Assembly (NCBI RefSeq): GCF_009931435.1
Contig: NZ_CP043414.1
Strand: one strand, 5' to 3'
Length of the DNA stretch: 64,000 bases
Source of the DNA: Escherichia coli
Lineage (GTDB): Bacteria > Pseudomonadota > Gammaproteobacteria > Enterobacterales > Enterobacteriaceae
Under the pieces are notes generated by a model that saw only the letters and a list, made by a program, of their open reading frames with translations, searched no databases and had not been told where the DNA came from. This document shows positions 2,273 through 58,053 of the stretch, piece after piece. Both the position numbers and the translations under genes were made by a program. The stretch's first letter is position 1. Every line of letters starts with the position of its first letter.

Positions 2273-5505
<3,233 letters not shown>

Positions 5506-51871: not shown

Positions 51872-51971
51872 AGGTAAATAATAGATGCGATTACTGCAAG
51901 GTAAACAACCTGTGGGTATTGACTTTTGTTTACCTGTAGGTATTCTTTGCTGTGTTTACTAAGGAGTAGCT
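51872..51971. promoter_or_regulatory. divergent promoter/operator region of the immunity switch
   Basis: AGGTAAATAA (51873), AGGTAAACAA (51899) and inverted TTGTTTACCT (51927) repeats around TTGACT; AAGGAG RBS for cro-like gene. Confidence 0.5.
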
Positions 51972-52253
51972 ATGGAAGAATTAAGAATATTTCTCAATTC
52001 TCTTTCGTCAGATGAACAGCGTATGTTTGCATGCGAGTGTGGTACCAGCATCGGTTATCTAAGAAAGGCATTGAGTAAAGGTCAAGTGTTAGGGGCATCG
52101 TTATGTGTCCTTATTGAGCGAGCCAGTAATGGTGAAGTTACACGTCAGCAACTAAGGCCTTTTGATTGGATGAATATTTGGCCCGAGCTGGAAGATACCA
52201 AAACGTTAACACAACCACTTTCTAGGAGCTTGATTCATGAAAATCAAGCATGA
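51972..52253 (+). CDS. Cro/YdaS-like HTH regulator
   Basis: 93-aa ORF divergent from repressor with AAGGAG RBS. Confidence 0.65.
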   Translation: MEELRIFLNSLSSDEQRMFACECGTSIGYLRKALSKGQVLGASLCVLIERASNGEVTRQQLRPFDWMNIWPELEDTKTLTQPLSRSLIHENQA

Positions 52254-52662
52254 ACACATCCGCATGGCGATGAATGCCTGGGCGCATCCGGACGGTGAAA
52301 AAGTTCCGGCAGCTGAAATAACCAGGGCTTATTTTGAACTGGGTATGACGTTCCCAGAACTGCATGACGACAGCCATCCGGAAGCCCTGGCTCGCAATAC
52401 CCAGAAAATTTTCCGCTGGGTAGAGAAAGACACCCCTGATGCAGTTGAAAAAATTCAGGCGTTGTTACCAGCGATCGAAAAGGCAATGCCACCTTTGCTG
52501 GTGGCCAGAATGCGCAGCCACAGTTCAGCTTATTTTCGGGAGCTGGTGGAGACGCGGGAGCGACTGGTGAGAGACGCTGATGATTTTGTCGCAGTGGCAA
52601 TCGCCGGTTTCAATCAGATGAACCGTGGTGGCCCGGCAGGAAATGCTGTGGCAGTGCATTGA
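52237..52662 (+). CDS. YdaT-like (CII-like) regulator
   Basis: 141-aa ORF starting MKIKHEHI as in Rac YdaT (recalled); 17-nt overlap with preceding gene. Confidence 0.55.
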   Translation: MKIKHEHIRMAMNAWAHPDGEKVPAAEITRAYFELGMTFPELHDDSHPEALARNTQKIFRWVEKDTPDAVEKIQALLPAIEKAMPPLLVARMRSHSSAYFRELVETRERLVRDADDFVAVAIAGFNQMNRGGPAGNAVAVH

Positions 52663-52733
52663 GTGATAATAGCCATATCGAATCGCTTCCGGCAACTCGT
52701 GAGTAAAAAGATTCGGTATCAGAAGAGGTGAGT

Positions 52734-53804
52734 ATGGCTAACGCCTGGCTCAGATTATGGCATGACATGCCAAATGACCCTAAGTGGCGAACAATTGCCA
52801 GGGTGTCAGGGCAGCCAATTGCAACAGTGATGGCAGTGTATATCCACCTCCTGGTGAGCGCGTCACGAAATGTCACGCGAGGTCACATTGATGTCACGAC
52901 AGAAGATTTGGCAAGTGCGCTCGACGTGACAGAAGAGGTAATTGATTCAATTTTGCAGACGATGCAGGGGCGGGTACTTGATGGTGATTTAATCACTGGA
53001 TGGGAAAAACGCCAGGTGCTTAAAGAGGACAACGGCAATATTTCGCAAACCGCAAAATCTCCTGCAGAGCGCAAGAGGGCGCAGCGAGAGAGGGAAAGAA
53101 AGCGGGAACAAAATGGCGATTGTCACGGCGCATCACGAAATGTCACGCACATGTCACGACGAGTCACGACAGATAAAGATACAGATAAAGATACAGATCA
53201 AGAAGATCAAAACACTATGGTCCATGGCGTAAAAAACGCTACGAACCAGGCAGGGGATGTTCAGACCGTCAATCCTGGTCAGCCAGCAGGCACGACACCG
53301 GAAGCCGATTCAGCGTATGCGCTGAAACCCGATTCGGGCGCTGTGCAGCAGGTGATGACCCAAAGGCCGGAACAATCACACCAACTGCAGCAGCCTGAAG
53401 CCGATTCCGCCATTCAGCGGGAAGCCGATCGGGTAGTCCCGGAAAACACCGGGCTGTCTGTGGGACGAGTGGATTATCCGGATGTGTTCGAACAGGTCTG
53501 GCGGGAGTACCCGTTGCGTGCCGGAGCAAACCCGAAGAAATCCGCTTTCAGTGCCTGGAAGGCCAGATTACGCGAGGGGGTGCCACCAGAGGCCATGCTG
53601 GATGGCGTGAGGCGTTACGCAAGATACTTGGCGGCTACCGGGAAAACGGGAACGGAATTTGTTCAGCGAGCGACGACGTTTTTTGGACCGGACCGGAATT
53701 TTGAGAACCCCTGGTTGCTCCCGGTAAGCGGCACGAACAACCAGCGTTGTGTGAATCATATTTCTGAACCGGATAACGAAATTCCGCCGGGCTTCAGGGG
53801 GTAA
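52734..53804 (+). CDS. replication-module protein (YdaU-like, putative initiator)
   Basis: ORF 52728..53804, ATG at 52734 after AGAGGTGAG; N-terminal WLRLWHDMPNDPKW; contains iteron clusters and an acidic DKDTDKDTD linker. Confidence 0.6.
   Translation: MANAWLRLWHDMPNDPKWRTIARVSGQPIATVMAVYIHLLVSASRNVTRGHIDVTTEDLASALDVTEEVIDSILQTMQGRVLDGDLITGWEKRQVLKEDNGNISQTAKSPAERKRAQRERERKREQNGDCHGASRNVTHMSRRVTTDKDTDKDTDQEDQNTMVHGVKNATNQAGDVQTVNPGQPAGTTPEADSAYALKPDSGAVQQVMTQRPEQSHQLQQPEADSAIQREADRVVPENTGLSVGRVDYPDVFEQVWREYPLRAGANPKKSAFSAWKARLREGVPPEAMLDGVRRYARYLAATGKTGTEFVQRATTFFGPDRNFENPWLLPVSGTNNQRCVNHISEPDNEIPPGFRG
52861..53169 (+). repeat. iteron-like repeats (putative prophage origin) inside the replication gene
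   Basis: GTCACG-type motifs at about 52862, 52872, 52882, 52893 (inverted at 52925) and 53122, 53132, 53142, 53153, 53163; TCACGAAATGTCACGC occurs twice. Confidence 0.55.
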
Positions 53805-53844
53805 GTGTTAATTTCTGGTCATGAGGTAATTTTCAGGAGGGCTT

Positions 53845-54270
53845 GTGGCAAAAGTTTTTACACAAGAAGAGCGGGAAAAAATTAAAGGGCAGGTTGTTGA
53901 ACTCGTACGCCAGAGTGGGCGCGAGACGTTACGACAACTGGAAACTAAAACTGGGGCAACAAGATATCTGATGAGCGTTCTGGCCAGAGAGCTGGTTGCC
54001 AGTGGCGATGTATACAACTCTGGTTACGGGTTATTCCCGTCTGAACAGGAGCGTAAGGACTGGCAAAATGCCCGTAAAAAGCTCTCAAGGGCAAAGCTGA
54101 AGAAACCATCTGCGGTTGATCCGGACCTTATCTGGTCATTACCTGACGGAGAAATACGTCGCTACGATAGTTGTCTAAACATAATCTGTCGCGAGTGCCG
54201 GAAGAGCGAAGTTATGCAGCGCATTATGGCATTTTATCAGGGAAATGTTAGGTATTTTAGACGTTACTAG
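53845..54270 (+). CDS. hypothetical basic protein (141 aa), replication-module associated
   Basis: GTG start 7 nt after CAGGAGG; GC similar to prophage backbone; no family recognised. Confidence 0.55.
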   Translation: MAKVFTQEEREKIKGQVVELVRQSGRETLRQLETKTGATRYLMSVLARELVASGDVYNSGYGLFPSEQERKDWQNARKKLSRAKLKKPSAVDPDLIWSLPDGEIRRYDSCLNIICRECRKSEVMQRIMAFYQGNVRYFRRY

Positions 54271-54497
54271 ATTAAAGGGCATTAGTTCAGATATGCATTG
54301 ACATTTTCATGGCACAAGGTAGAGCTAGCGTGGTTGTTCGCTTTGTGCCAAGAGTGGTCATTGATAATATTTTGGTGGGTTACATCTGTCAATGTTTCAG
54401 GTGATATGATATACAAATAGCCAGACTTAGACTGGCATGCTGTTTATTTTTATATTATGGGTGTGCCACATGGATTTAAAACTTATTGAGATATGAC

Positions 54498-55523
54498 ATG
54501 GATACTTTTCATAATATTTTGCTTGAGCACATAGACAGCCTTTTAAAAGAGAGACTTGATTTATCTGGTGACGCTGATATCGAAAAAGAAATTAATAACC
54601 TAATTCCCAAAATAGTCATTGTCGTTAAAAAATCTCTTATTGGCTCGGCCAATGCAATGCTTAGAGAACATCGTTCTCTTTGTGATGAATTTGTTGAGAG
54701 AAATATTTCAAGATGGGCAGAGGCTTTTGATTTGCTCGAAACACTTATAGTGATATGCACGGAGTCCGGTGAAGAGTTCAATCGTTCTTATAGACCACAA
54801 GCTGCCTCTGAAGAGGATGTGGTTTTTGATTTAGTCGTTCGGCATCACGCAAGAGCTTGCCACATCGCCAACGAAATTTTGTGTCTCTTAAAGAATGGAT
54901 TTGCAGATGCTGCCCAAGCGAGATGGCGAGCACTTCATGAGGTAGCAGCCACAGCTATGTTTATAGCAAAGCATGGAAAAGAGTGTGCTGAGCGCTTTTA
55001 CTACCATGAAGTGGTTGATTCATATACTGGAATGTTGGAACACAAAAAGTACGAGCACCGGTTAGAAGCAAAAGGTCCAACTATTGAAGAAATAGCTGAG
55101 TGCAAAGTTCAATTTGATCTATTAATAAAAAAATACGGCAAAAAATATGCAGATAATTATGGGTGGGCATCTTATATTTTCCCTAACCATAATAAAGTGG
55201 GGTTTGGAGCTATTGAGAAAGATGTTCAGTTAGAACACATGCGCCCTTATTATAAGTGGGCGAGTCAGAATGTACACACCGGTTCCAAGGCAATGAGAAA
55301 TAGGCTTGGTCTCTGTGAAACTGGTGATGATATATTATTGGTCGGGCAAAGTGATTCAGGAATGGCTGATCCAGCCCATGCTACTGCTATTAGTTTGATG
55401 CAGATTACTGTGACACTTTTATTCTTAAAACCAACCATTGATCATGCCGTCATTTCAAAAATAATACAGGATTATTCTGATGAGATTGGAAATGTATTTC
55501 TTAAAATTGATAAGGGTAATTAA
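54498..55523 (+). CDS. orphan AT-rich hypothetical protein (341 aa from ATG; 345 aa from TTG at 54486), function unknown
   Basis: Uninterrupted 1-kb ORF; visibly AT-rich versus flanks (about 38-40% GC by eye); no TM segments, no P-loop; no recognised homologue. Confidence 0.7.
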   Translation: MDTFHNILLEHIDSLLKERLDLSGDADIEKEINNLIPKIVIVVKKSLIGSANAMLREHRSLCDEFVERNISRWAEAFDLLETLIVICTESGEEFNRSYRPQAASEEDVVFDLVVRHHARACHIANEILCLLKNGFADAAQARWRALHEVAATAMFIAKHGKECAERFYYHEVVDSYTGMLEHKKYEHRLEAKGPTIEEIAECKVQFDLLIKKYGKKYADNYGWASYIFPNHNKVGFGAIEKDVQLEHMRPYYKWASQNVHTGSKAMRNRLGLCETGDDILLVGQSDSGMADPAHATAISLMQITVTLLFLKPTIDHAVISKIIQDYSDEIGNVFLKIDKGN

Positions 55524-55905
55524 AAATTGGAAAAGTGATAGTATATTCTTGTTTTTTTACTGGTAATTAAATGTTTTTAAAGTTACTAGTTCACACCTAT
55601 CGAACGTCCGGTCTTCGCCCAAAGCGGACTAGAAGGTTAGCTTGCGTCGGATTTGGCGTATTTAAAGAATCGCTGGTGGTTACTGGTTGTTGTGTTCCAT
55701 TTCTACAGAACAAAATCACAGAAACTATACCCAATAGTTGTATCTCATCAATGATGAGAGAGCCTCATATTTATCAGGACTGGTGTACGTCCAATACAGG
55801 AGGTTGTCGTGCTGGTTCTCAAATGTGCGCTGGCTATTGCAGCTGTAATGGCAATTTATTGTCTTGCTGTTGTTCTTATGGATCGCCTTTCTGATTGATT
55901 TTATA

Positions 55906-57003: not shown

Positions 57004-58053
57004 GTGCGGGTATTACTTCGACCTGTTCTGGTACCGGAACTCGGGCTGGTGATCGTTAAGCCGGGCCGTGAATCCATGCCGGTATTCCACAATACCCGGT
57101 TACTGGTGGAGCCGGAACCGAAAAGCATGCGTAATCTGCCGTCCGGGGTCGTTCCTGCCGTTGGCCAGCCGCTGGCGGAAGACAAAACATTGCTGCCGTT
57201 TTTTAGTAACGAACGGGTGATTCGTGCTGCTGGCGGCGTTGGCTCATTGTCTGACTGGCTATTACGTCATGTTACATCCTGCCAGTGGCCTAATGGCGAT
57301 TACCATCACACTGAAACAGTCATTCACCGTTATGGTACCGGCGCAATGGTGTTGTGTTGGCACTGCGACAACCAACTGCGTGACCAGACATCGGAATCAC
57401 TGGAGCTGCTTGCTCAACAAAATCTGACAGCATGGGTGATTGACGTCATCCGTCACGCAATAAGCGGTACGCAGGAGCGGGAATTATCTTTGGCTGAATT
57501 ATCCTGGTGGGCGGTCTGCAATCAGGTGGTGGATGCACTACCTGAGGCTGTATCGCGTCGTTCGCTGGGATTACCAGCGGAAAAAATCTGCTCGGTGTAC
57601 CGCGAAAGCGACATCGTACCGGGAGAGCAGACCGCCACCAGCATATTGAAACAACGCACAAAAAATCTTGCACCGTTGCCTTACGCCCACCAGCAACAAA
57701 AACTACCACAGGAAAAGACGGTGGTAAGCATCACCGTTGATCCAGAGTCTCCGGAATCTTTCATGAAGCTGCCTAAACGTCGCCGCTGGGTTAAGGAGAA
57801 ATACACACGTTGGGTTAAGACACAGCCGTGTGCTTGCTGCGGTATGCCAGCCGACGATCCGCATCATCTGATTGGTCACGGGCAGGGCGGAATGGGAACA
57901 AAAGCACATGATCTCTTTGTGTTGCCTTTGTGCAGAAAGCATCACAACGAGCTGCATACGGATACAGTGGCATTTGAAGAGAAGTATGGCTCCCAACTGG
58001 AGCTGATATTTCGTTTTATCGATCGCGCGCTGGCAATTGGCGTACTGGCGTAA
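57004..58053 (+). CDS. ydfU: YdfU-like protein (DUF968) with C-terminal HNH-like Cys/His motif
   Basis: 349-aa ORF, GTG start; CACCG...DDPHHLIGHG...CRKHHNELH. Confidence 0.8.
   Translation: MRVLLRPVLVPELGLVIVKPGRESMPVFHNTRLLVEPEPKSMRNLPSGVVPAVGQPLAEDKTLLPFFSNERVIRAAGGVGSLSDWLLRHVTSCQWPNGDYHHTETVIHRYGTGAMVLCWHCDNQLRDQTSESLELLAQQNLTAWVIDVIRHAISGTQERELSLAELSWWAVCNQVVDALPEAVSRRSLGLPAEKICSVYRESDIVPGEQTATSILKQRTKNLAPLPYAHQQQKLPQEKTVVSITVDPESPESFMKLPKRRRWVKEKYTRWVKTQPCACCGMPADDPHHLIGHGQGGMGTKAHDLFVLPLCRKHHNELHTDTVAFEEKYGSQLELIFRFIDRALAIGVLA

Follow-up and report, generated by a model that had tools for sequence, protein, structure and literature searches.

Within the stretch of 64,000 nucleotides of Escherichia coli DNA analysed here, which we refer to as the window, a lambdoid prophage carries a small gene directly behind its replication initiator gene. 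A first-pass annotation had placed this gene in the slot where lambdoid phages usually encode a helicase loader, either lambda P or a DnaC-like protein, even though its product appeared far too small for this task. The locus raises the question of whether a protein of this kind helps to load the replicative helicase, or whether it belongs to a family that resides beside replication genes for another reason.

Gene order in the window matches that of the E. coli chromosome between malI/uidA and ynfC, and a Qin-type lambdoid prophage, inserted near ynfC/speG/rspAB, extends from ~45.5 kb onwards. The gene of interest, named here for its Pfam family DUF977, is separated from the upstream initiator gene by 40 nt (Table 1). 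The strong ribosome binding site, the GTG start and the location behind the initiator that had been noted at first pass are all borne out, as is the description of the product as small, basic and devoid of a P-loop: the 141-residue protein has a pI of 9.74 (9.9 for lambda Ren) and its sequence lacks the GxxxxGK[ST] motif. The upstream sequence GGTAATTTTCAGGAGGGCTT is identical in 40 related loci. RefSeq places WP_001151208.1, a “DUF977 family protein,” at identical coordinates in E. coli chromosomes that are 99.8% identical, and the ratio of nonsynonymous to synonymous change (dN/dS) among 52 distinct alleles is ~0.10. The open reading frame is a real gene under purifying selection. It is also an ordinary and very common prophage gene, whose DNA is found in 4071 of the 5426 complete E. 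coli genomes (75%) in up to five copies per genome, and DUF977-family genes are likewise carried by plaque-forming phages, including mEp460 and HannyBb.

Table 1. Features of the prophage replication region and of the DUF977 gene, in window coordinates.
Feature	Coordinates	Strand	Remarks
Promoter-like site, pR position ahead of cro-like gene	51919..51946	+	Consensus match only
cro-like gene, YdaS family	51972..52253	+	Head of rightward operon
cII-like gene, YdaT family	52237..52662	+	Head of same rightward operon as cro-like gene
Initiator / replisome organizer, 358 aa, DnaT-like C-terminal tail (…ISEPDNEIPPGFRG)	52728..53804	+	Sole replication gene of the module
Shine–Dalgarno sequence AGGAGG	53835..53840	+	4 nt before the GTG of the DUF977 gene
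DUF977 / Ren-like coding sequence, 141 aa	53845..54270	+	GTG start, TAG stop; open reading frame list, Pfam, PHROG, RefSeq, dN/dS
Winged helix-turn-helix, residues 7–64	53863..54036	+	Helices 7–24, 29–36 and 40–53, strands 57–59 and 62–64; pLDDT 96–98
Long basic helix after the wing, residues 67–86	54043..54102	+	8 K+R in 20 residues; near-invariant W73
Linker, residues 87–111	54103..54177	+	pLDDT 55–67; gapped and length-variable in alignment; holds non-conserved C110
Signature helix NIICRECRKSEVMQRIMAFY, residues 112–131	54178..54237	+	Helical in models of the window protein and Ren
DUF5677 gene, 345 aa, low GC	54486..55523	+	Directly downstream of DUF977; position variable in related phages

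The region downstream of the DUF977 gene differs in character. An island of low GC content (54300..55900; 0.36–0.40 versus ~0.50 in the flanks) holds the DUF5677 gene, which looks like a moron; unrelated genes occupy its position in related phages. The AT-rich stretch behind DUF977 contains 18 promoter-like sites where 8 are expected. One of these, a sigma-70 promoter-like site on the minus strand at 54392..54364 (TTGACA, 17-nt spacer, TATTAT; 11 of 12 consensus positions), lies ~90 nt beyond the DUF977 stop codon and points antisense into the gene, and may have arisen by chance given the enrichment of such sites there. A weak bidirectional hairpin is present at 54420–54436. Farther downstream, with the hokD region on one side and rusA and Q on the other, a gene for a 349-residue DUF968 or HNH-endonuclease-like protein (57004..58053) is typical of the nin-equivalent region of Qin-type prophages. 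A PADLOC search yielded no match for the DUF977, initiator, DUF5677 or DUF968 genes.

The identity of the protein is best approached through its sequence family. Residues 1 to 135 match positions 1 to 133 of the 134-position Pfam DUF977 profile (PF06163; E = 2.6e-28), with a score of 99.2 bits against a curated gathering threshold of 22.1 bits; NCBIfam holds no model for DUF977. The protein also matches phrog_142, “Ren-like exclusion protein” (E = 2.4e-44, profile positions 1–113 of 116), and the same profile recognizes the 96-residue Ren protein of phage lambda (NP_040633; E = 1.6e-41, positions 11–110). When a profile made from 14 DUF977 sequences was aligned by hhalign with a profile made from four Ren-type sequences, with no sequence in common, the two matched over 91 columns spanning the winged helix and the C-terminal motif (probability 97.9%, E = 6.3e-13). 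Moreover, protein lengths in the family form a continuum, in which members of 115–122 residues bridge the 131–155-residue DUF977 proteins and the 95–97-residue Ren-type proteins. Because the two proteins share a PHROG match, because disjoint profiles align, and because lengths are continuous, the window protein can be tied to lambda Ren. Identity between the two is 21% in an alignment of 21 sequences, and pairwise BLAST detected the C-terminal motif alone (NIICRECRKSEVMQRIMAFY against NLVFKECRQSAAMKRVLAVY). At this level of sequence identity, function may have diverged.

When 1.84 billion cluster representatives were searched exhaustively, the DUF977/Ren family amounted to only 177 clusters. 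The window protein is 65–95% identical to phage proteins annotated as LygF, DUF977 or Ren-like, and is a typical member of the Pfam DUF977 “LygF” proteins of Rac-type, Stx and mEp460-type phages, from which it shows no substantive difference. In the literature, the name LygF leads to unrelated lysozyme genes or to a bare gene list of the Salmonella Enteritidis Sdr I region; it is a label from that region with no function attached. A full-text search for the name DUF977 led to a single paper, which mentions it as a winged-helix domain of unknown function fused to some Fic proteins. Eight proteins (P0150, P0191, P0222, P0226, P0236, P0243, P0259 and P0260) carry five to nine tandem DUF977-like winged-helix repeats, among which the 581-residue P0150 has a signal-peptide-like N terminus and eight near-identical repeats of ~70 residues. 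These tandem-repeat proteins lack the Ren C-terminal signature. A weak member of 115 residues that does have the signature helix (P0267) is the only one in the family encountered away from phage replication genes. It is encoded beside relaxase, MobC and NikA-like genes on a 5.7-kb contig of GCA_014330145.1 (L092) that resembles a small mobilisable plasmid.

The architecture of the protein agrees with this assignment. The AlphaFold2 model, computed from the alignment of 21 sequences (mean pLDDT 82.5, pTM 0.58), confirms the winged-helix region that had been suspected from the sequence, and follows it with a basic helix, a linker and C-terminal helices covering residues 113–139, whose relative placement is uncertain (pLDDT 55–82 after residue 87). 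In the model of lambda Ren the elements occur in the same order without the linker. The window protein is 45 residues longer than Ren, owing to a helix 1 that is extended at its N terminus and to ~26 residues inserted ahead of the signature helix, and this inserted linker is predicted to be a disordered segment added in DUF977 proteins relative to Ren. The two proteins otherwise resemble each other in matching the same PHROG profile, in being basic and in sharing the C-terminal signature, N-x4-E-C-R-x-S-x2-M-x-R-[VI]-[LM]-A-x-[YW]. Across the 21 aligned sequences, including Ren, C118, S121, M124 and R126 are invariant and N112 and W73 are near-invariant. The C-terminal helix is where the invariant residues are concentrated, while the recognition helix (residues 40–53) is among the least conserved parts of the winged helix-turn-helix. 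Conservation of a protein partner would explain this distribution better than conservation of an operator.

The C-terminal cysteines (CLNIICRECRK) had been singled out at first pass as a cluster. We rejected a zinc-binding cluster or zinc ribbon, which would require three or four conserved Cys/His ligands, because C118 alone is invariant: C115 is limited to the long subfamily, with F, I or V at its position in Ren and the short members, and C110 is exchanged for R, Y, Q, K and other residues in close homologues. There is no conserved metal site. Fold searches with the window protein returned winged helix-turn-helix domains only, with the ArsR, MarR, IscR and GntR repressors as the closest. Zalpha domains (ZBP1, PKZ, ADAR1) were also considered. 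In these, an Asn and a Tyr of the recognition helix, together with a Trp of the wing, contact Z-DNA. In a HMMER alignment, the Asn and Tyr of PKZ align to a consensus Arg and Lys, which correspond to S44 and R48 of the window protein, and the candidate was rejected. The resemblance to Zalpha is that of a generic compact winged helix-turn-helix.

We then compared the position of the gene across relatives. In lambda the order is O-P-ren, and O, P and ren are described as terminally overlapping genes in the supplement of a preprint (Thomason et al., bioRxiv 10.1101/2021.04.19.439022). One related locus (L090) retains this arrangement, wherein Phage_rep_O and Phage_lambda_P genes are followed by a DUF977-family gene of 115 codons, with stop and start overlapping. 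Stx phages carry an initiator, a DnaC-like AAA+ gene (PF01695, E = 8e-19), DUF1627 and then DUF977, and the Rac-SA53 prophage has YdaU, a lambda-P-like gene (PF06992) and DUF1627 ahead of “LygF.” Another locus (L089) encodes a YdaU-like protein (DUF1376 plus DnaT domain), DUF1627 and DUF977 with no loader. Finally, DUF977 directly follows the initiator in the window, in the isolated phages mEp460 and HannyBb, and in two further loci (L088 and L093). A sample of IMG/VR loci gave the same picture. Among the 63 loci with enough upstream sequence and a DUF977 protein at least 88% identical to that of the window, 44 have the direct arrangement and 19 have a loader cassette (15 DnaC-like, four lambda-P-like), each followed by DUF1627.

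The most informative comparison is between two loci, L011 and L013, whose initiators are identical at 323 of 325 residues (99%) and whose DUF977 proteins are identical at 138 of 141 (98%). The sole difference between them is a DnaC-like plus DUF1627 cassette lying between initiator and DUF977 in L013. This cassette, at −1554 to −16 relative to DUF977, encodes a DnaC-like AAA+ protein of 248 residues and a DUF1627 protein of 256 residues, and also occurs at 2950–4486 of another locus (L004). The DUF1627 protein of the cassette has two N-terminal helix-turn-helix-like modules. Start codons of DUF977 genes across related loci number 56 GTG and 21 ATG; in the examples inspected they track the architecture, with GTG and AGGAGG at a direct initiator junction and ATG and GGAGG after DUF1627.

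DUF977 is thus present irrespective of whether a phage carries a helicase loader, or which kind, and is found together with both PF01695 and PF06992 genes. The loader is an optional cassette that is absent from the window prophage, and DUF977 is the constant downstream gene. Because DUF977 follows the replication module whatever its content, its position is the ren slot rather than the loader slot, and loss or gain of the loader cassette as a module accounts for the small protein seen where a loader was expected. Like ren in lambda, the window gene comes immediately behind the replication genes of the pR operon. In lambda, however, ren overlaps P, whereas the window gene stands 40 nt from the initiator with its own strong ribosome binding site, and the window prophage has neither an upstream P gene nor annotated rexAB genes. 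With genuine helicase loaders (lambda P, PF06992; DnaC/IstB, PF01695; DnaD-like proteins), the window protein has only its neighborhood next to the initiator in common; it shares no sequence or fold similarity with them, lacks Walker motifs and co-occurs with real loaders. No loader-family match was obtained in Pfam, NCBIfam or PHROG, and the Pfam search included the DnaC/IstB, lambda P, DnaD and DciA families at E ≤ 1. Taking family and location together, we consider it very probable that the gene occupies the ren slot and that its product is a long-form Ren-family protein (DUF977, PHROG 142). What had been reported at first pass about position, size, winged helix and the lack of a P-loop stands; equating that position with a loader slot does not.

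If DUF977 does not load the helicase, how might this be accomplished? The annotation of the entire window prophage shows neither a P nor a DnaC-like loader. The 358-residue initiator matches a PHROG “replication initiation protein” profile (E = 1e-255) and is a “phage replisome organizer protein” in RefSeq. Its residues 124–358 match phrog_1701, “DnaD-like helicase loader” (E = 1e-62), as well as “primosomal protein” profiles, and the final 24 (…CVNHISEPDNEIPPGFRG) match the tail at the C terminus of DnaT, an E. coli restart protein proposed to recruit DnaB-DnaC (PMC13377028; PMC13220808). The DnaT-like tail, written ...SEPDNEIPPGFRG, is encoded at ~53730–53801 of the window, and such tails are present on initiators both with and without an adjacent DnaC-like gene. 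Most likely, to judge from these sequence features, the helicase of the window prophage would be loaded by host DnaB-DnaC recruited via the initiator. This is the simplest account because the initiator has a DnaD-like half and a DnaT-like tail and no loader is annotated, and it requires no contribution from DUF977.

O-like initiators with differing N-terminal domains (replisome organizer, HTH_36 or DUF1376) were seen in the window and in loci L004, L006, L011, L013 and L065. Common to them is the tail ...(V/I)S(E/L)PDxxIPPGFRG, which is near-identical to the final ~20 residues of DnaT in E. coli. The window and L011 have different initiators but identical junction DNA, from the tail up to the DUF977 start, a pattern suggestive of a recombination joint within the tail-coding sequence.

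Knowledge of Ren itself comes largely from lambda genetics. As reported in the bioRxiv preprint 10.1101/2021.04.19.439022, lambda ren mutants grow poorly on Rex+ lysogens, where they are subject to Rex exclusion, and suppressors of the ren defect map to O and P. That preprint also describes interactions of Ren with RexA and RexB in a bacterial two-hybrid (BACTH) assay, and a RexB-Ren interaction was found by yeast two-hybrid (PMC3224144). RexB is stated to stabilise lambda O (bioRxiv 10.1101/2021.04.19.439022; PMC3224144). The authors of the preprint suspect a link to replication and call Ren “likely involved in DNA replication” (bioRxiv 10.1101/2021.04.19.439022), and the same source cites Toothman and Herskowitz (1980) for the finding that ren is dispensable for lambda growth on non-lysogens. 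Confident homology to a well-characterised non-replication protein had been named at first pass as the result that would speak against its reading. The homology to lambda Ren is indeed confident, but Ren is genetically defined, non-essential for replication and biochemically poorly understood, and its link to replication is suspected, so that it answers this description only in part.

By homology to Ren, the DUF977 protein would be made together with the initiator and would act as an accessory of the replication module rather than as a core replication factor. Its winged helix and C-terminal helix could bind the replication complex, the sensor proteins of a Rex-type exclusion (abortive-infection) system, or both, and as a result phage replication would escape triggering exclusion. 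We regard such a Ren-like anti-exclusion mechanism, which is proposed by analogy, as having somewhat less than an even chance of applying to the window protein. A weak point is that neither rexA nor rexB is annotated in the window prophage, including next to the repressor gene.

Other roles can be weighed against the same observations. The protein could substitute for a loader or, as an adaptor, connect the initiator at the origin with host DnaB or DnaB-DnaC. Its place directly after the initiator, the lack of any loader in the window prophage, mEp460 and HannyBb, and the constant retention of the gene beside replication genes would all suit such an adaptor, as would the lambda suppressors in O and P and the suspected involvement of Ren in replication that the preprint reports. 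However, a DnaC-like AAA+ gene may be present or absent between one and the same initiator and DUF977 proteins that are 98% identical, lambda-P-type loaders precede other family members, and the window protein has neither a P-loop nor a match to DnaC/IstB, lambda P, DnaD or DciA in Pfam at E ≤ 1. The DnaD-like and DnaT-like parts of the initiator can account for recruitment of the host helicase, and ren is dispensable for lambda on non-lysogens as cited in the preprint. We judge an adaptor of this kind improbable. Equally improbable is the related proposal that, in loader-less modules, a Ren-family protein takes an active part in initiation, for instance by linking the DnaT-tailed initiator to host DnaB-DnaC or by remodelling the complex at the origin, with anti-exclusion in lambda as a side effect. 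If true, it would explain ren in biochemical terms and reveal a new small factor for helicase recruitment.

A somewhat better, though still unlikely, candidate is a sequence-specific regulator whose winged helix binds operators or origin DNA and thereby tunes delayed-early (nin-equivalent) transcription or the timing of origin use. The canonical N-terminal winged helix with repressors as its closest structural matches, the basic helix that follows it and a weak second match to phrog_2391, “DNA binding protein,” are consistent with this role. Yet the recognition helix is poorly conserved and the invariant residues lie in the C-terminal helix, many winged helix-turn-helix domains mediate protein contacts, and the genes downstream of near-identical DUF977 genes are wholly different among phages, leaving no constant target operon. 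Lastly, many Qin-type prophage regions like the one that holds the gene are defective, which, together with the GTG start, might suggest a decaying, functionless remnant of a cryptic prophage. The selection seen across the 52 alleles, the presence of intact copies in thousands of genomes and in plaque-forming phages, and the persistence of the invariant residues down to 20–30% identity effectively refute this reading, to which we assign almost no weight.

On balance, the best overall explanation, and one we favor with some reserve, is that this gene, in the rightward early operon of a Qin-type prophage, encodes a Ren-family accessory to the replication module. The protein is already known to Pfam, RefSeq and PHROGs, and recent phage records label it “Ren-like exclusion protein”; the present analysis documents the DUF977–Ren link through independent profiles, members of intermediate length and synteny. 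The Ren family is nearly universal beside lambdoid replication modules. Near-isogenic phages with and without the loader cassette, of the L013 and L011 types, respectively, offer a convenient system in which to test both Ren-like proteins and DnaT-tailed initiators.
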